Source of the DNA: Candidatus Saccharimonadota bacterium
GTDB lineage: Bacteria; Patescibacteriota; Gracilibacteria; UBA1369; 2-02-FULL-48-14
Assembly (NCBI GenBank): GCA_965230905.1
Contig: OZ246396.1
Location: 120,001-152,000 of the forward strand
DNA: 32,000 nt
Reading direction: 5' to 3'
In this document: piece by piece, positions 3,001-28,160 of the stretch
Numbering within the stretch: position 1 is the stretch's first letter
How the letters are laid out: the number at the start of each line of letters is the position of its first letter
Translations under genes and position numbers: made by a program
The notes under the pieces: model-generated
Database searches by the model: none
What the model was told of the DNA's origin: nothing
What the model saw: the letters and a program-made list of their open reading frames with translations, nothing else

Positions 3001-5333
3001 GGGACGATTCTCAATATGGCGTCAGCACTAGTTACGATCCACTCAACCGCCCTCTCACGGTCACGGCGCCCACCGGCAGCACCAGCTACGACTATTCACA
3101 GTGGGAAAACACCGTCACGGATGCGAATGGAATTTCCAAAGTTTATAACTACGATGCGGCGGGACGTCTTCTCGAAGTTGAAGAGCAAAACGACGGCGCC
3201 ACTTACAACAGTGCGTACGAATACGATCCCCTCGGACAGCTTCTCACGCTCACCGATTCGCAAGGCAATGAACGCAATTTTGATTACGATTCCTTGGGCC
3301 GAAAAATCAGCCAGGAAGATCTGCACGATCCCACCGAAACTACGTTTGGAACGTGGAGATATACTTACGATGCCAACAATAATCTCCTCACTCAAACCGA
3401 CCCCAAGGGTCAAGTGATTACCTGGGCCTACGACCTTCTTGACCGTGTGTCTTACGAAGACTGGGACATGAGTACAACCGCACGGGATTTCAATTATCTC
3501 TACGACAGTGGAACTCGCGGCCGTATGAAAATTTACCGAGTAAATTCCAACAATCAAGACATCAGCGTCTACTACAATAGCTACGATTTCTTAGGAAATC
3601 CCACCAAGGAAAGTCATTCCTATAAGAATCCCGGACTCGCCACCTATTCAAACTACATTTTTTTGAAGACCTATGATTTGCTGAGCCGTGAGACCAAGGT
3701 CACCTACCCTTTCTCCGTGCTCACGGTGAACACCACCTACAACGCCACCGGAGCCATTGAAAAAATCACCCGCGGCACCAGCACGCTCAGCAATGTGATC
3801 AGCGATATTGATTACACGCCCGCCGGCCAAGTGAGCTCAATGACCTACGCGAACGGTGTGGTGACGACCAATAGCTACGACCCTGCCGAGTCTTACCGGC
3901 TCACCAACAAAACTACCACCGGCAGTTACGGTGGCGTGTCCGGAAACATTCAAAACCTCGCCTACAGCTACGACGCTGTCGGCAATATCACGGGCATCGC
4001 CGATACGTCCATCACGCCCACGGCTAAAACCATCACGTATACCTACGATGATTTGAACCGCTTGCTCAGCAGCGCGACCAGCGGCCTTTCCGCGGGCGAT
4101 TACACCGAGACTTATACTTACGACAGCGTCGGCAATCTGACTTACAAATCGAATGTGGGTACGCTTACGTATGCGGGTACAGGCGCCGCGGCCAATCCGC
4201 ATGCCGTGACCGACGTGGCGGGAACCGCTTACACCTACGATGCCAACGGAAACATGACCTCGGATGGTACGAACAGCTACACATGGGACAAACGGAATCG
4301 TATGACGGGTAGCGGAAGCTTGGCCTTCAGCTACAACGCGGACGGCAGTCGTTACCGCACCGCCGATTCCAGCAGCGGAACTACCGTGTACAACTATTAT
4401 CTTTCACCGTACGAAGAAATCCGTAACGGCGTAAAAACTTATTACATCTTCGCCGGCAGCCAACGTGTGGCTTCCTTGGTCGGCACCACCTACACCTACT
4501 ACCACAATGACCACCTAGGCGGCACGGCTTTAACAACAGACAGCACGGGTGCCGTTACCCAAGTCTACGATTACTACCCTTACGGCAGTGAGCTTATTAA
4601 TAATCAAATAGGAACCAGTGAAATCCACCACTCCTTCACGGACAAAGAACTCGAAGACGCCCTGGGCCTCTATTACTTCGAAGCGAGGTGGTACGACGGC
4701 GACATTGGACGCTTTGGCAGTCTGGATCCGGCGCAGTTAGATAACCGTGTGTTTAAACTCATCACCGATCCCCAGAGTTTGAATTTCTATGCGTATTCTA
4801 GGAATAATCCGATTAATCTTGTGGATCCGAGTGGGGAAGTGCCAGAATGGTTAAAAAATGCAGGCCAAAATGTTTTAAGAACTCTTGATACTGTTCCAGT
4901 GACAGGAGATATATCTGATGTTTATAGTGCCATTACTGGGACCACTTTATTTTCTCAAGAAGAATTAACACCTGAAGAAAGAGCCATGACTGCAATAGCA
5001 GGTTTGGTCATTGGAGCGACTGGAGGCCAAATAAGATTAGCTGATGATATAATCGAAACGGTTGAGAGTGCAGGGACGAAAGTGGGGACAAGAAATATAG
5101 ATGGAGGAACTACAAATGCGGATGAGATACTAAATGGAGCTGAAAATTGGCTAGGAAACGGGTATAAAGAAATAGATGAAGGAGTTTTCCGATCCGCGGA
5201 CGATAGTAGGCAGTTTAGAATGACGGACAACGATTTGACTGACCCAAAGCAAGGGCCTCATACTCACTTTGAATCAGTGGGACAAGGGGGTAGCGGAAGT
5301 GTAGAAAATTCACACGTTTATCTAGAAGACTAA
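3..5333 (+). CDS. RHS/YD-repeat polymorphic toxin, 5' end outside window (SpvB-like segment, FG-GAP-type repeats, TcdB-mid-like segment, YD repeats, RHS core, variable C-terminal toxin)
   Basis: The ORF is open to the window edge (no stop between nt 3 and the first ATG at 15). The translation has about seven D[VI]NGDG[LFY]xD FG-GAP-like units and dozens of YD-repeat units (e.g. YTYDANGNMTS, YEYDPLGQLLT). It also has the RHS core (YYHNDHLGGT, LYYFEARWYDGDIGRFGSLDP) and the boundary motif NPINLVDPSGE at nt 4806-4838. Confidence 0.92.
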   Translation, partial: SISRMNKTGLNNLYSETNFSSSLSGELVSISGSPYGDYGAKVESGAYLDYVFNSSDDSWTVTDKSGTVYTFGSTADSRQDNPSDSTEIYKWMLEEIRDTNDNYLRYEYFKENGQIYPESISYTGNGATDGIFLVEFGLESRSDPSSFYSTGFEVQTDYRVSGIEVSIDGTLRKSYGLTYTTPDNTTRSLLKSVTESGVSETGVTTTLPATTFDYAQSSKGWSSVNGYTIPVYFYFSGDHSDKGNDVADVNGDGLLDIIDSGLYSGSTGVDSVYLNNGDGSGWSEDSSYTVGVRFWDNGKNQMRNTRMTDINGDGFSDILYGAMDSTTDARKTYIFDEDTSTWVEDSAYSLPIRFNDGYLDDLGVRLLDVNGDGYSDYVQSLIDSSGAQQSLYLFDPETQTWNVETSYSIPVAFNDRSSNTDEGVSLGEVNGDGLVDIIKSRYDGSTQQAVYLNNGDGTGWTQDTGYSIPVYFWESSGILSTVAQLMDVDGDRLADIVHSDASHSDVYINRGNGTGWAKDTAYTVPVDFALSYGSPEGVQSMDVDGDNFVDFVQSKQSGGTTTQRVYVSNASPELLETVHSYKGSTTTVSYSPSTEFDNPNLPFAMNLVDSITVDDGLGDSSTTTFDYEGGAYLYEDELNRQFAGFSSITKTEDGRETETFYEQDDLALLGHAYQSDVYDESGNLYTRSIDTWASSDLGYDNDFVYKSKSATLTYDGGSSHRDTGTAYTYDSNGNVKTVINYGEVTASLDGTFTDDTTLDEKTTLTYTYATDGSGGEIRNKVAEEKVTNSAGTVIKKTRYFYDSNSSYATVSTGNLFRQADWYDATNGWYNSYYTYNSYGLVATAKNRRWYTTSFTYDAYNLYPAVTTNPKTYTVSTEYDYATGQMTSRTDENGITSESTYDGLGRVLTVSVPDPTTGVLTTLSTTSYDDTSVPSSVSTTSTVGGVTSESVTYIDGYGRTVQSNTLAEDGLYTTVDTWYDSLGNVQTQSLPYSTSSSAYGRDDSQYGVSTSYDPLNRPLTVTAPTGSTSYDYSQWENTVTDANGISKVYNYDAAGRLLEVEEQNDGATYNSAYEYDPLGQLLTLTDSQGNERNFDYDSLGRKISQEDLHDPTETTFGTWRYTYDANNNLLTQTDPKGQVITWAYDLLDRVSYEDWDMSTTARDFNYLYDSGTRGRMKIYRVNSNNQDISVYYNSYDFLGNPTKESHSYKNPGLATYSNYIFLKTYDLLSRETKVTYPFSVLTVNTTYNATGAIEKITRGTSTLSNVISDIDYTPAGQVSSMTYANGVVTTNSYDPAESYRLTNKTTTGSYGGVSGNIQNLAYSYDAVGNITGIADTSITPTAKTITYTYDDLNRLLSSATSGLSAGDYTETYTYDSVGNLTYKSNVGTLTYAGTGAAANPHAVTDVAGTAYTYDANGNMTSDGTNSYTWDKRNRMTGSGSLAFSYNADGSRYRTADSSSGTTVYNYYLSPYEEIRNGVKTYYIFAGSQRVASLVGTTYTYYHNDHLGGTALTTDSTGAVTQVYDYYPYGSELINNQIGTSEIHHSFTDKELEDALGLYYFEARWYDGDIGRFGSLDPAQLDNRVFKLITDPQSLNFYAYSRNNPINLVDPSGEVPEWLKNAGQNVLRTLDTVPVTGDISDVYSAITGTTLFSQEELTPEERAMTAIAGLVIGATGGQIRLADDIIETVESAGTKVGTRNIDGGTTNADEILNGAENWLGNGYKEIDEGVFRSADDSRQFRMTDNDLTDPKQGPHTHFESVGQGGSGSVENSHVYLED
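4839..5333 (+). other. Variable C-terminal toxin module of the RHS protein: PT-TG-like pre-toxin segment plus an unclassified toxin domain of about 100 aa
   Basis: The module starts right after DPSGE. LDTVPVTGDISDVYSAITGTTLFSQEELTPEERAMTAIAGLVIG resembles the pre-toxin TG module of polymorphic toxins. The tail (NADEILNGAENWLGNGYKEIDEGVFRSADDSRQFRMTDNDLTDPKQGPHTHFESVG) is not a family I can name. GC drops from about 57% (nt 4441-4500) to about 38% (nt 4861-4920) at this boundary. Confidence 0.7.
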
Positions 5334-22166: not shown

Positions 22167-22721
22167 ATGCAAGTCCCTCGTGAACTTAGCCATTTCCGCC
22201 CCTACTTTGGAGAAAAATGCACAGGCGAAGAGCGGCATCTCGTTTCTTTGCTAGGAAGTACATTTTCAGACCTCCAAGCTTTTATGGATCATCTAAGAAA
22301 AATTGATGTCCATCCTTGCGCTAAAATGCATGAGAACCCAAACGGGGAAATTCACCAAAATCGTTGCCCTGTTCGTGCTATGAACGCTTGCTGTGCGCAT
22401 CAGCAAGAATGGCAATTGGAGGGCGATCGTGCAGTATGGCATTTGCTGGATGGGGCTATCGTACTTGCTTATCATTTTCATCTGCTTTCTCTACAAGAAC
22501 GTCGCACCCTAGAAGTCAGAAAGTCTGTGGCTACGGGCACTCTTGTAGCAACAGATCTGAAAGCTTCGATTCATTATTTCAATGTTAGTGGACCAAATGA
22601 AGCTCCCGTGACTAACGCATCTATAAGAACTACAGAGCTAGCGGCAGGTCGAGAACTTTTAGCCATTCGAGATGAACTGCTGGTGTTATTTGAGGGTGAA
22701 GTCTCAAAATATAGACTCTAG
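22167..22721 (+). CDS. Uncharacterised protein, paralogue 1 of a Cys/His-motif family (CxKxHE ... CPx5ACxH) with conserved C-terminal LAIRDEL helix
   Basis: Motifs PCAKMHEN, RCPVRAMNACCAH and IRTTELAAGRELLAIRDELLVLFEG align with SCGKAHEA, ECPRWSNNAACGH and IRAQETALGKQVLAIRDELVGLLE of ORF 25219-25689. Confidence 0.7.
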   Translation: MQVPRELSHFRPYFGEKCTGEERHLVSLLGSTFSDLQAFMDHLRKIDVHPCAKMHENPNGEIHQNRCPVRAMNACCAHQQEWQLEGDRAVWHLLDGAIVLAYHFHLLSLQERRTLEVRKSVATGTLVATDLKASIHYFNVSGPNEAPVTNASIRTTELAAGRELLAIRDELLVLFEGEVSKYRL

Positions 22722-25218: not shown

Positions 25219-25689
25219 ATGGAAAGAAAAGACTCGGTATTAGAACAGGACGCCACGATGGATATTTTAGGCGAATTAAAATCGATCCGTGTAATCTCCT
25301 GTGGGAAAGCACATGAAGCAACGGAAACTTATATGAAATTTTACGAATGTCCACGCTGGAGCAATAACGCTGCCTGTGGACATCTATTTGAATACGATTC
25401 ACCGGTTCAGATCGTGCTCAGGCGGGCCGGTACTTTAGCTTTTTCTTTGGGCCGGCAAACAGAAGAGGATCGACAAGCTAAAGAGGCTAAGTTAAGTGAG
25501 CTGTATCATGCTTTACACGGTTTAGACAGCCAGGCGGCGGACTATTATCATATGTTGCGGTTGAATGGGGATGATGGTTTAACAGAAATCACCGTACAGC
25601 AGATTCGGGCCCAGGAAACAGCCCTTGGGAAACAAGTGCTCGCCATTCGGGACGAACTCGTTGGTTTATTGGAGATAGTTATCCAATAA
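25219..25689 (+). CDS. Uncharacterised protein, paralogue 2 of the Cys/His-motif family
   Basis: See 22167-22721 for the alignment. The start may be the ATG at 25258, which has AGGA 8 nt upstream. Confidence 0.7.
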   Translation: MERKDSVLEQDATMDILGELKSIRVISCGKAHEATETYMKFYECPRWSNNAACGHLFEYDSPVQIVLRRAGTLAFSLGRQTEEDRQAKEAKLSELYHALHGLDSQAADYYHMLRLNGDDGLTEITVQQIRAQETALGKQVLAIRDELVGLLEIVIQ

Positions 25690-26660: not shown

Positions 26661-26666
26661 TCACAG

Positions 26667-26771
26667 TTTTTAGTGGGACCTTTCTGAAATACATAAACTA
26701 AAAGGAAGCGGCGAAAAAGATCATGATCTTTTTCAGAGCGCTCCTGTGTTTCAGAAAGGTCCCACTAAAAA
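26667..26771. repeat. 105-bp nested inverted-repeat element: 23-bp perfect terminal arms enclosing a 22-bp perfect palindrome
   Basis: TTTTTAGTGGGACCTTTCTGAAA (26667-26689) is the exact reverse complement of 26749-26771. The inner palindrome GAAAAAGATCATGATCTTTTTC lies at 26713-26734. The element starts 7 nt after the DUF475 stop. Confidence 0.85.
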
Positions 26772-27274
26772 AATCGCCCTAAATGTTTCTAATCGTTGTT
26801 CAGCATCAGGTGAGAGCTTGGAGTAAAGGTGCAGAACATTGCTGTAACTGAGCTTTTACTTAATCTGTTGATCGTTTCCCGAGGGAAAGACCGGCCAGAA
26901 AAAGGTATCTGTCTATTCCTTCTTTCTGAGTACTTAAACCCACTGCAGAACGAGGTGATAGTGGCCAACATATCTTTGGGAAGATGATGTCCATCCAGGC
27001 TTACTAGGCGATTAGGAACTTAGGGCGCAGGAGGTGAAAAGTGGTGCTAACCTGATGGGTTGTCCGATTTTTGGGTACTTCGTGACCGAAAATCGGTTCG
27101 GGGGTTCCATCGTAGGGGCTTTATACCTTTTGTGCCGTAAGTTTCGCGCCGTGTTTTCAAAGATCATCATATTATTGTACCACGACTTGCTAGTTTTCGC
27201 AAGGGGCTTGAAATGAGCTTTGCATGGCAGTACAATGTTTATGACGATCCTAGCGATGAGAAACCATCTCGGAT
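26772..27274. other. ORF-poor region of about 0.5 kb with dense local hairpin potential (candidate structured ncRNA, strand unresolved)
   Basis: Only two 60-aa ORFs without a convincing RBS. Hairpins include CAGAAAAAGG..CCTTCTTTCTG (26896-26929), CCGATTTT..AAAATCGG (27063-27095) and ATTGTAC..GTACAAT (27174-27236). The region is bounded on the right by a bidirectional terminator-like hairpin. Confidence 0.3.
27242..27256. repeat. 15-nt exact direct repeat copy A (TGACGATCCTAGCGA)
   Basis: Identical to 27351-27365, which lies inside the tRNA-like gene (its central stem-loop). Confidence 0.9.
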
Positions 27275-27306
27275 AAAAGGCCCTCTTCGTGAGAGCCTTT
27301 TATTTT
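27275..27306. terminator. Bidirectional intrinsic-terminator-like hairpin
   Basis: AAAAGGCCCTC-TTCGT-GAGAGCCTTTTATTTT, a 7-bp stem with one mismatch flanked by an A-run and a T-run. The T-run is good on the plus strand and weaker (TTTTATCC) on the minus strand, 6-11 nt after the CCA of the tRNA-like gene. Confidence 0.5.
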
Positions 27307-27311
27307 GTCAG

Positions 27312-27385
27312 TGGTGGACCCGCGGGGAGTCGAACCCCGGTCGCTTAGGTTGACGATCCTAGCGACGGATGCCAATCCCGGGCCC
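27312..27385 (-). ncRNA. 74-nt tRNA-like element with tmRNA-TLD-like topology (acceptor stem with G3:U70, T arm, encoded ACCA; no cloverleaf, no tag region)
   Basis: The minus strand reads GGGCCCG-GGATTGGCATCC-GTCGCTAGG-ATCGTCAA-CCTAAGCGAC-CGGGG-TTCGACT-CCCCG-CGGGTCC-A-CCA. The acceptor stem (7 bp) and T arm (5 bp, 7-nt loop) are canonical. The D and anticodon arms are replaced by a 4-bp/4-nt mini-hairpin and one long hairpin. Confidence 0.6.
27351..27365. repeat. 15-nt exact direct repeat copy B (TGACGATCCTAGCGA) inside the tRNA-like gene
   Basis: Identical to 27242-27256. Confidence 0.9.
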
Positions 27386-27431
27386 ACAAAACACTGACTC
27401 ATCTGTTATAACTGACCGACCTTTATAAAAA

Positions 27432-27475
27432 CCTGAAATTTTCCTGAATTATTTCTGAATTAATCCTGACAAATC
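27432..27475. repeat. Four tandem 11-bp repeats (CCTGAAATTTT CCTGAATTATT TCTGAATTAAT CCTGACAAATC)
   Basis: Read directly from the sequence. The period matches one helical turn. The array lies 47-90 nt upstream (minus-strand sense) of the tRNA-like gene. Its CTGAAT core is shared with the boxes at 24937-25098. Confidence 0.8.
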
Positions 27476-27578
27476 GCGCAATTCTCACTGTGCAAATGTT
27501 CAAACCCCTCCGCCAAGTTTAACCTGAAAGTTCCGGACCGGTCCGGGATGCCAACCTGTAAAATCATTTCTAGGCAGT

Positions 27579-28160
27579 ATGACGAAAATGTGTAAAACTG
27601 AGTGCATGCTCCCCCACGGCCCCAACCCCTACTTCACCCTTTCATCTGAATTGCTGCATGAGCGAACGTATGTGCGTTTTTTGAAAGACAAAGTTCAAAT
27701 AGATGAGATTAAAAAAGACTACAGCTACATGGACGTGGACGACAGTGTGGGCATTGTGGCGCTGAATGAAAAAGGCGAGATCGCGTTGGTGGGTCAGTGG
27801 CGCTACCCCATTAAAGAATACAGGTGGGAAATTCCCGCAGGCATGAGTGAACCGGGCGAGACTCCGCTTGAGAACGCGCAGCGGGAACTTATGGAAGAGT
27901 CTGGCGTGAGTGCTTTGAAATGGACGGCGTTCGGGTCGTACCAAATGGACGGGTCTAAAATGAATCAACAAAATCACCTGTTTTTGGCGGAGCAGCTTAC
28001 GGTGGGTGACAACGCGCCGATGATAGACGAGAAATTAGAACGGCTGTGGATTCCGCTGGAAGAAGCCATCGCTTTAGTGGAAGCGGGCGAACTCCGGGAT
28101 GGACTCACCGTGATTGCCTTGTTTAGAGTTCAATCGTATCTCCAAAAGCAGGGACGATAA
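27579..28160 (+). CDS. Nudix hydrolase (ADP-ribose pyrophosphatase-like)
   Basis: Nudix box GMSEPGETPLENAQRELMEESGV (Gx5Ex7REuxEExGu). The start is uncertain (Met codons at 27579, 27588 and 27606). The 3' end overlaps the convergent beta-CASP gene by 38 nt. Confidence 0.85.
   Translation: MTKMCKTECMLPHGPNPYFTLSSELLHERTYVRFLKDKVQIDEIKKDYSYMDVDDSVGIVALNEKGEIALVGQWRYPIKEYRWEIPAGMSEPGETPLENAQRELMEESGVSALKWTAFGSYQMDGSKMNQQNHLFLAEQLTVGDNAPMIDEKLERLWIPLEEAIALVEAGELRDGLTVIALFRVQSYLQKQGR

Follow-up and report, generated by a model that had tools for sequence, protein, structure and literature searches.

The 32,000-nucleotide (nt) window analyzed here (positions 120,001 to 152,000 of contig OZ246396.1, assembly GCA_965230905.1) carries, on its minus strand, a 74-nt tRNA-like RNA gene that has the form of the tRNA-like domain (TLD) of transfer-messenger RNA (tmRNA). 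The gene is part of a protein-free cassette of ~370–400 bp, which also holds a conserved upstream region, an intrinsic terminator that serves both strands, a diverged partial duplicate of the TLD (the "half copy") and, on the opposite strand, a predicted small RNA (sRNA) antisense to the TLD. Two further copies of the cassette were found at loci designated L194 and L195. The coordinates of all features are collected in Table 1, in which other L numbers denote the remaining loci used for comparison.

Table 1. Features of the TLD cassette, its three occupied sites and its viral relatives. Positions refer to the window unless another locus is named.
Feature	Position	Strand	Evidence or remarks
TLD-type tRNA-like RNA, 74 nt	27312–27385	-	sequence; minimum free energy (MFE) fold equal to centroid; Rfam ends match; conservation; covariation
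5′ leader segment GUCAGUG	27392–27398	-	can pair with 3′ trailer CACUGAC (27313–27307)
Conserved upstream region	27386–27546	-	alignment of three cassettes; BLAST extents
Bidirectional intrinsic terminator	27273–27306		stem GGCUCUC/GAGGGCC, 27297–27291 with 27285–27279
Half copy CCGAGAUGGUUUCUCAUCGCUAGGAUCGUC	27243–27272	-	diverged duplicate of TLD nt ~5–34, beyond the terminator
Predicted antisense sRNA, ~64 nt, GACGAUCCUAGCGAUGAGAAACCAUCUCGGAUAAAAGGCCCUCUUCGUGAGAGCCUUUUAUUUU	27243–27306	+	promoter register; consensus fold; complementarity
Sigma-70-like promoter TTGAAA-17-TACAAT	27208–27236	+	window; −10 ends 6 nt before 27243
Sigma-70-like promoter TTGAAA-17-TATAAT	L194 4971–4999	opposite TLD	conserved block from 5006
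Sigma-70-like promoter TGGACA-17-TAAAAT	L195 2928–2900	opposite TLD	conserved block ends 2893
Whole protein-free cassette, approximate extent	27205–27575		between NUDIX gene start (27606) and promoter of the ~400-nt RNA
NUDIX/~400-nt RNA site	occupied: window		empty: L002; other open reading frames (ORFs) instead: L003, L005–L007
ThrRS/RecF site	occupied: L194		empty: L346 (RecF 93% identical), L345; spacers 97–142 nt
S18/170-aa site	occupied: L195		empty: L347 (window genome, 20.5 kb); truncated remnant: L349
Viral-contig TLD-only examples	L183 9368–9450; L317 263–337; L172 907–978; L168 4373–4442 (also L186, L191); L158 3848–3925		

Read from 27385 to 27312, the RNA has the sequence GGGCCCGGGAUUGGCAUCCGUCGCUAGGAUCGUCAACCUAAGCGACCGGGGUUCGACUCCCCGCGGGUCCACCA. 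Its acceptor stem comprises 7 bp (GGGCCCG/CGGGUCC), including G3:U70, and ends in an unpaired discriminator A73 and an encoded CCA. The acceptor is abutted by a mini hairpin of 4 bp with a UGGC loop (GGAU-UGGC-AUCC), which is followed by a long hairpin of 9 bp with one bulged A and an 8-nt loop (GUCGCUAGG-AUCGUCAA-CCU-A-AGCGAC). A T arm of 5 bp with the loop UUCGACU (CGGGG-UUCGACU-CCCCG) abuts both the long hairpin and the acceptor stem, whose 3′ strand CGGGUCC and terminal ACCA complete the molecule. The MFE fold is identical to the centroid and consists of these four helices exactly as they had been drawn in an earlier, sequence-only reading of this DNA, with G3:U70, the encoded CCA and the canonical T arm in place (−37.3 kcal/mol, z = −2.6, with 5 of 200 shuffles equally stable). 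The same reading had assigned the RNA an alanine identity set, and this is indeed carried at its two ends (G1-C72, G2-C71, G3:U70, A73 and CCA), while neither an anticodon nor a tag message is present in the 74 nt. In addition, the leader and trailer segments listed in Table 1 form a helix of seven pairs in the consensus fold of the three cassettes, with one A-U pair replaced by G-U in L195. Such pairing would lengthen the acceptor helix in a precursor transcript, and it suggests that the RNA is processed from one.

With respect to family assignment, the RNA does not behave as an ordinary tRNA. ARAGORN in default mode reported no tRNA or tmRNA at 27312–27385, its sole call in the window being a tRNA-Gly elsewhere, and at thresholds of 70–90% it returned only ill-formed calls at this locus. 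A scan at Rfam gathering thresholds likewise gave no match at the TLD. In a permissive scan the best family was tmRNA (RF00023, 38.3 bits against a cut-off of 47), and in the clan CL00001 competition this match was kept and outscored any tRNA match. Specifically, the match spans model positions 1–374 with both ends aligned and the central ~300 positions deleted, in keeping with the earlier proposal of a tmRNA TLD whose P2 helix is capped by a loop. An ordinary tRNA was thus ruled out, as that proposal had also held. The RNA shares with tRNA-Ala and alanine-accepting minihelices the G1-C72, G2-C71, G3:U70, A73 and CCA elements and a normal T arm, but it lacks the cloverleaf and 7-nt anticodon loop of the tRNA family (RF00005), as well as a variable region and linkers at positions 8–9 or 26. 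The mascRNA/MEN-beta family (RF01684) likewise folds compactly into a tRNA-like shape, with an acceptor, a T helix, an anticodon-like helix and a short D-like one; this family, however, is eukaryotic and nuclear, and its score of 33.4 bits is under the cut-off of 42.5, so that the resemblance amounts to generic tRNA-likeness.

The correspondence to canonical tmRNA (ssrA, RF00023) extends to the ends of the model, the alanine identity set in its G3:U70 acceptor, discriminator A and 3′ CCA, the T-loop consensus GGUUCGAnUCC, the GG-containing segment after the acceptor stem and the helix that leaves between that segment and the T arm. The T arm CGGGG-UUCGACU-CCCCG aligns with GGGUUCGAuUCCC of the RF00023 model. 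Compared with canonical tmRNA, ~300 model positions are absent; these hold the tag ORF with its resume codon, the four pseudoknots and all of P2 except its base. Nothing conserved follows the cassette that could supply an mRNA-like domain. The region of the D analogue and P2 base is also distinctive, as its UGG lies within the loop of the 4-bp hairpin, the junction GUC/GAC is Watson-Crick and the GAC...GGAC positions of the RF00023 model are gapped in the alignment. We take the UCGAC/GGAC junction, together with the D-loop analogue at the base of P2, to be the SmpB-contact region. This junction is retained at the base of the long helix in the viral-contig RNAs L183 and L317, as it is in canonical TLDs.

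The sequence-only reading had considered the form to be without precedent among bacterial gene classes, a view that we cannot uphold as TLD-only tmRNAs are on record. The tmRNA of mycobacteriophage DS6A is listed as "TLD only" (Hudson, Lau and Williams, PMC4131195), and a DS6A-like molecule strongly inhibits tmRNA in E. coli, perhaps via SmpB titration (Mao et al. 2009, as reported in PMC4131195 and PMC11915505). A 2025 tmRNA database paper describes plastid forms of ~65 bp in Mallomonadaceae and tag-less mitochondrial forms in jakobids, and also nine "Standard, no CDS" (no coding sequence) sequences as well as a possible lack of the tag frame in two bacterial groups (PMC11915505). Its supplementary table includes three "Standard, no CDS" entries in Patescibacteria, where 9FT-COMBO-53-11 sp001772805 is a species of this kind, and standard tmRNA calls in ~78% of Patescibacteria genomes, and CDS-less tmRNAs are conserved in some organelles, where they co-occur with SmpB (PMC11915505). 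Like these known molecules from DS6A, jakobid mitochondria and Mallomonadaceae plastids, the present RNA falls within 65–85 nt, has the G3:U70/A73/CCA acceptor and the T arm, and possesses neither pseudoknots nor a tag ORF; as in DS6A, the tRNA-like domain stands alone with P2 capped. Unlike them, it is chromosomal in Peribacteria/Gracilibacteria, scores below the Rfam cut-off and is Watson-Crick where canonical TLDs have UCGAC/GGAC, and it comes with a dedicated predicted antisense sRNA, a bidirectional terminator and a relocating cassette.

Short TLD-only tmRNA-like genes (70–83 nt, 7-bp acceptor, G3:U70, ACCA) were also encountered in number in viral and metagenome contigs, and the DS6A type may be far commoner in phages than the literature implies. 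One of them, L183, lies inside a phage tRNA array, and several viral examples stand immediately 5′ of an ORF start. Three viral-contig genes reach the Rfam tmRNA cut-off, namely L183 and L317 at 59.8 bits each and L172 at 47.9 bits, and no repeat of the gene was seen beside any viral TLD-only example. The first broad 3′-end pattern used in these searches was saturated by ordinary tRNAs and tmRNAs, and phage tRNA-Ala genes that share the GGGCC.../...GGUCCACCA acceptor were also encountered.

In pattern scans, copies of the RNA proved sporadic. Scanning one genome per bacterial species (185,579 genomes) for the T arm, UCCACCA and AUUGGCAUC recovered it in two metagenome-assembled genomes (MAGs), L194 and L195, which match the window at 73 of 74 positions (C6 to U, with wobble pairing kept) and at all 74, respectively. 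A scan of JGI metagenomes added one contig, a second copy of the L195 locus. These pattern scans demanded exact motifs, so that diverged orthologues could escape them. An origin from phage or E. coli found no support in BLAST searches, which returned no match to the element in E. coli genomes or in the phage collection.

In terms of selection, the three cassettes differ sharply in how well their parts are kept. Pairwise identity is 99–100% over the TLD segment and 93–100% over the half copy (30 nt past the terminator), while the upstream regions share 63–67%; the spacer and terminator are 100% identical between the window and L194, and 72% identical between either of these and L195. The terminator stem of L195 (GACCCUC/GAGGGUC) nonetheless still pairs, one G-C having become A-U by a double change and one U-G having become C-G. 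A TLD kept at 99–100% beside flanks at 63–72%, together with compensation in the terminator, is the pattern of a selected RNA rather than that of a scar or pseudogene.

Covariation cannot be seen among the three cassette copies, which resemble one another too closely. A search with a covariance model derived from these copies identified three viral-contig RNAs of the same layout, L172 (52 bits), L150 and L156. In an alignment of the five distinct sequences, 96.7% of the cells pair, as compared with 71% in shuffles and 48–57% when the pairing partners are slid by 1–3 columns. Two-sided changes occur in 15 of 25 pairs, a count attained by none of 500 shuffles, and the G3:U pair is invariant throughout the five. 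Folded alone, L172 adopts as its MFE structure the same four helices as the TLD, with many compensatory changes. Judged by the near-identical MAG copies and these two-sided changes, the feature is beyond chance, and we regard it as a genuine RNA gene under selection that belongs with the TLD-only tmRNAs.

Beyond the terminator, the half copy has GAGA-UGGUU-UCUC as its mini hairpin where the TLD has GGAU-UGGC-AUCC, and the next 14 nt repeat the long hairpin's 5′ arm and loop without a mismatch. The repeat is exact over a 15-mer (27365–27351 and 27256–27242, 109 nt apart), for which 0.06 occurrences are expected. The sequence-only reading had listed an integration target or scar among the possible roles and had also named a deletion derivative of ssrA. 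Mobile DNA often integrates into tmRNA genes, and the direct repeat located 109 nt downstream, which covers part of the gene, and the insertion polymorphism described below could both be taken as the remains of such traffic, i.e., an attachment site, scar or pseudogene without function as an RNA. We regard this as extremely unlikely. It fits poorly with the 99–100% identity of the TLD while other cassette parts stand at 63–72%, and with four intact helices that show compensatory changes in relatives. Moreover, the repeat covers the 5′ half of the gene, unlike classical tRNA/tmRNA integration and the islands it generates, which involve the 3′ end, and it is itself conserved with its own promoter. 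None of the three cassette neighborhoods contains an integrase gene, and a real decayed copy of the cassette (L349) looks very different. The 14-mer TCGCTAGGATCGTC was also considered as an attachment core in viral contigs; it gave at least 120 matches, and those listed were all chance matches without extended similarity.

Similarity among the three genomes stops abruptly at 27243, after the ...GTC of the half copy, and in all three genomes a sigma-70-like promoter directed against the TLD gene has its −10 hexamer exactly 6 nt from this boundary of the conserved block, so that the block begins where transcription is predicted to start. These sites fit 10–11 of the 12 consensus positions. In scans of 500-nt regions, in which 0.3–0.7 promoter-like sites are expected per region, the antisense site was the sole promoter-like site of the L194 region, whereas the window and L195 regions each had one more. 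The terminator-like hairpin noted in the sequence-only reading (27297–27279 plus a U run) is present, and it lies between an A run and a T run, which gives either strand a hairpin with a U run after it. An opposite-strand promoter in a fixed register, a terminator and the half copy predict a plus-strand RNA of ~64 nt, whose gene would converge on the TLD gene, with both sharing the bidirectional terminator. The conserved half copy, the opposite-strand promoter and the insertion polymorphism had all gone unseen in the sequence-only reading.

The predicted sRNA would consist of a free single-stranded 5′ seed (GACGAUCCUAGCGA), a small hairpin and the terminator, and its consensus fold contains two compensatory pairs in the latter. 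Its 5′ 14 nt are perfectly complementary to nt 21–34 of the TLD, which form the 5′ arm and loop of the long hairpin, and this complementarity is kept in all three genomes; weaker pairing runs across the entire 5′ half of the TLD. The computed duplex has an energy of −51.3 kcal/mol, against −30.5 ± 4.3 kcal/mol for shuffles, one of which was as low. By sequence, the pair therefore has what is expected of an antisense system, i.e., an adjacent gene, a perfectly complementary stretch, and a predicted promoter and terminator of its own. Two small side-by-side genes, short perfect complementarity and a compact, scattered accessory unit are likewise features of type I and type VIII antisense toxin-antitoxin pairs; in the type VIII class the toxin is itself an RNA. 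Unlike in those pairs, a toxin role is here presumed, and the antisense gene reverses a diverged partial duplicate rather than the target gene. To our knowledge, a tRNA-like decoy of ribosome rescue is not among the known RNA toxins.

The build of the sRNA, with its 5′ seed, small hairpin and intrinsic terminator, is that of a trans-acting regulator, and the best-scoring promoter-like sites of the cassette belong to it. Spacers of tRNA precursors can act as sRNA sponges. It is conceivable on these grounds that the plus-strand sRNA is the main effector, acting on mRNAs elsewhere, and that its level is set by the TLD, either as a sponge or as a tRNA-like decoy of high stability. All 74 nt of the TLD are conserved, however, and not just the 14-nt target, while alanine identity, a T loop and CCA would be needless in a sponge. 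The seed target also has no other match within the window, and we consider an sRNA-centered role quite unlikely.

On the other side of the TLD, the conserved upstream region contains the AT-rich phased repeats that the sequence-only reading had pointed out, namely four TCAG(G) motifs in an 11-nt phase (27468, 27457, 27446 and 27435), as well as the block TTCAGGTTTTTATAAAGGTCGGT and a TTGCACA-type direct repeat. Its far end is marked in the window (27546–27533) and in L195 by the palindrome CCGGACCGGTCCGG. At the same place in L194 (~5275–5290) this is replaced by another perfect palindrome, TTATTCCCAGGAATAA, and both are followed by a (T/A)(T/A)CAGGTT motif; it seems, from the three sequences, that hairpin or dyad symmetry rather than sequence is kept here. 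BLAST similarity covers 27243–27546 against L195 and 27243–27504 against L194. The only ORF across the cassette (50 aa, 27402–27250) is unconserved, having lost its start codon and shifted frame in L195, and a conserved small ORF in the cassette or a peptide encoded by the sRNA was ruled out, as start codons and frames are not kept.

The cassette was found once in each locus set examined, and its three neighborhoods have nothing in common. Conservation at the syntenic site failed in five relatives, which looked like a refutation until copies surfaced at other loci. L194 is from an uncultured Candidatus Peribacteria MAG and L195 from a Candidatus Gracilibacteria MAG. Homologues of the flanking NUDIX, RecF and 170-aa proteins come from entries under Candidatus Gracilibacteria, Candidatus Peregrinibacteria or "Patescibacteria group", and the host lineage is a small-genome lineage of the candidate phyla radiation (CPR). 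L194 and the L195 population share 84% identity in RecF, and L195 and the window genome share 75% in the 170-aa neighbor; judged by these proteins, the three hosts are related but distinct. Each occupied site is empty in another cassette-bearing genome (Table 1), L345 being presumably from the same contig as the carrier of an L195-type cassette. The insertion in L194 measures ~395 nt and has the antisense promoter inside the inserted DNA. At the S18/170-aa site, locus L349 retains a remnant, and taken together the empty sites and this remnant indicate that the element can be lost. As judged from these alignments, the cassette is accessory, and its intergenic location differs among the three related genomes.

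The remnant itself occupies L349 534–578, beside a neighbor that is 86% identical. It comprises the last ~30 nt of the RNA (GGUUCGAUUCCCCACAGGUCCACCA) with three substitutions, fused to the region of the upstream palindrome, and its sequence suggests a deletion that apparently ran between the T loop and one AACCTGAAA repeat. The sequence CAGGUCC, which is the 3′ strand of its acceptor, would fit the GGGCCUG variant of L194. The window copy, in turn, is flanked by a direct repeat, TCGTCATACTGCC (27572–27584) and TCGTCATA[aacattgta]CTGCC (27222–27249); equivalent repeats are absent at the L194 and L195 copies, and the repeat may be chance or a trace of the arrival of this copy.

Being protein-free, single in each locus set and at a different intergenic site in each genome, and with relatives of its RNA in viral contigs, the cassette might be thought to use the TLD for its own propagation. 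The RNA would then serve a phage, plasmid or reverse transcriptase in trans, for example as a primer or as a handle for recognition, and the cassette would behave like a bacterial short interspersed or miniature inverted-repeat transposable element (SINE/MITE). However, inspection by eye of the three insertion/empty-site pairs for terminal inverted repeats, target-site duplications and IS200/605-style ends after TTAC gave nothing consistent. The viral contig collection yielded no cassette copy among the matches listed, and a partner enzyme was not identified. We therefore hold such a role to be very unlikely.

The distribution bears equally on whether the RNA is the only tmRNA of its host, that is, a tag-less rescuer akin to that of jakobids, which would donate alanine while another factor finishes release. 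The conserved organelle tmRNAs without CDS that co-occur with SmpB and the three Patescibacteria entries of the "Standard NoCDS" type lend this idea some precedent. It would also suit the very strong purifying selection on the TLD, and no canonical tmRNA was seen in the 52.5 kb read of the window's 1.307-Mb contig (1,307,106 bp). SmpB was likewise not found in these 52.5 kb. Against the idea, the RNA is sporadic (2 of 185,579 species-representative genomes and one JGI contig in the exact-motif scans), the same intergenic sites are empty in close relatives, the L349 copy has decayed to a fragment and so was losable, and ~78% of Patescibacteria genomes have a standard tmRNA call. A sole-tmRNA role is thus distinctly unlikely.

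Acceptor/T-arm minihelices are substrates of the alanyl-tRNA synthetase AlaRS, and specialized non-proteinogenic tRNAs exist in Staphylococcus. An RNA with G3:U70, A73, CCA and a T arm, in which the missing anticodon bars decoding, could accordingly be pictured as a dedicated alanine carrier for a non-ribosomal purpose such as cell-wall cross-bridge formation or lipid aminoacylation. No Fem/MurM, MprF or other aminoacyl-transferase gene accompanies the cassette, though, and its neighborhoods are unalike; the antisense partner and the relocation would also be left unexplained. We give this carrier role little credence.

The reading that we favor, tentatively and at somewhat less than even odds, is that the cassette encodes an accessory, phage-type tmRNA decoy that is held in check by its own antisense RNA; a decoy was among the roles listed in the sequence-only reading. 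AlaRS charges minihelices bearing G3:U70, the TLD of tmRNA, together with SmpB, enters stalled ribosomes, and tmRNA is inhibited by a TLD-only molecule, as noted above for DS6A. In the proposed mechanism, the TLD would be excised from its precursor and charged by AlaRS via G3:U70, and it would then compete with the host tmRNA for SmpB, EF-Tu and stalled ribosomes. The TLD would be unable to complete rescue because it has no resume codon, tag ORF or stop, and trans-translation would be damped or blocked. The antisense sRNA would pair with the loop of the long hairpin, invade the stem, and inactivate or destabilize the TLD, such that the two RNAs together might form a self-contained regulator or an addiction-type pair. 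What the sequences show is the structure, conservation and covariation of the TLD, the register of the antisense promoter, the complementarity and the insertion polymorphism; that the RNAs are expressed, that the TLD is charged and bound by SmpB, and how the two RNAs act on each other and to what end, is inferred. A more far-reaching version is unlikely in our estimation: the cassette would be an RNA-only selfish or defense module that encodes no protein, with the stable TLD mimic as an RNA toxin against ribosome rescue and the labile antisense sRNA as its antitoxin, moving between intergenic CPR sites without an enzyme of its own.

Several observations weigh against the decoy reading. The Rfam tmRNA score is under the cut-off, and the UCGAC/GGAC junction that canonical TLDs, L183 and L317 keep is altered, which makes SmpB binding doubtful. 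The sigma-70 scan found no promoter on the TLD strand in the window, L194 or L195 regions. Duplication by itself could account for the 14-nt complementarity, with no selection for an interaction. The TLD is invariant among the three cassettes, so that the covariation depends on three viral sequences; these were found by a pattern that fixes GGG, UGGC, the T loop and UCCACCA, and were aligned by fitting to the model structure. Finally, the element amounts to three cassettes and one remnant in total, the three occupied/empty comparisons disclosed no terminal repeats or target-site duplication, and no recombinase gene lies nearby.

As for the surrounding DNA, the window has a G+C content of 48% and contains housekeeping genes, among which there is no integrase and no SmpB. 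Its genuine genes terminate at TGA, which rules out the alternative code with UGA as Gly that the Gracilibacteria label had brought into consideration. The order TerC/DUF475, ~400-nt non-coding RNA, NUDIX and beta-CASP nuclease is kept in five relatives (L002, L003 and L005–L007; NUDIX identity 71–91%), and the TLD gene is absent from this locus in all five, with a covariance-model search in agreement. The spot filled by the cassette holds unrelated ORFs of 170–266 aa in relatives, which marks the region as a hot spot for small lineage-specific genes; no kinship was found between these ORFs and the genes beside the other cassettes. Two window ORFs without a Pfam match (22167–22721 and 25219–25689) are mutual paralogues, with 30% identity over 141 aa.

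The ~400-nt RNA (26768–27168, minus strand) directly adjoins the cassette, ends in a U run and has its own promoter, TTGCGA-17-TACAAT, at 27202–27174. It recurs in the same five relatives, each time beside the TerC/DUF475 gene, and has no Rfam match even in a permissive scan. The consensus fold of four sequences displays compensatory changes in 25 of 94 predicted pairs, and we suggest from these alignments that it may be an undescribed structured RNA of this lineage. The sequence-only reading had also raised the possibility that the TLD is one half of a split tmRNA. This does not hold, as nothing is conserved past the cassette and the ~400-nt RNA occurs in relatives without the TLD; a split or permuted tmRNA using the ~400-nt RNA was ruled out because the TLD also occurs without that RNA in L194 and L195. 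Between the TerC gene and the ~400-nt RNA lies a long near-perfect inverted repeat, AGTGGGACCTTTCTGAAA ... TTTCAGAAAGGTCCCACT (26664–26774), part of which (26685–26748) is 82% similar to L344 9029–9093. In Rfam it matched plant microRNA hairpin models only, all far under their cut-offs, and by sequence it may be another small repeated element common to these genomes.

TLD-only tmRNAs have hitherto been curiosities of one mycobacteriophage and a few organelles, and here one is found under strong selection in CPR chromosomes. What is new in the present TLD is this chromosomal setting, an unusual D-region hairpin, a dedicated predicted antisense sRNA and residence in a small relocating cassette. 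The packaging, i.e., the conserved half copy, the register of the antisense promoter and the protein-free relocating unit, also appears to be new. That a unit of ~400 bp without a protein gene can shift its position in the genome raises the question of its mobilizer. Were the RNA the sole tmRNA of these genomes, it would represent a bacterial instance of tag-less ribosome rescue. If the decoy model is true, trans-translation, which is essential in many species and an antibiotic target, is subject to a switchable RNA inhibitor carried by bacteria or by their mobile elements, and a tRNA-like RNA would join the very short list of RNA toxins.

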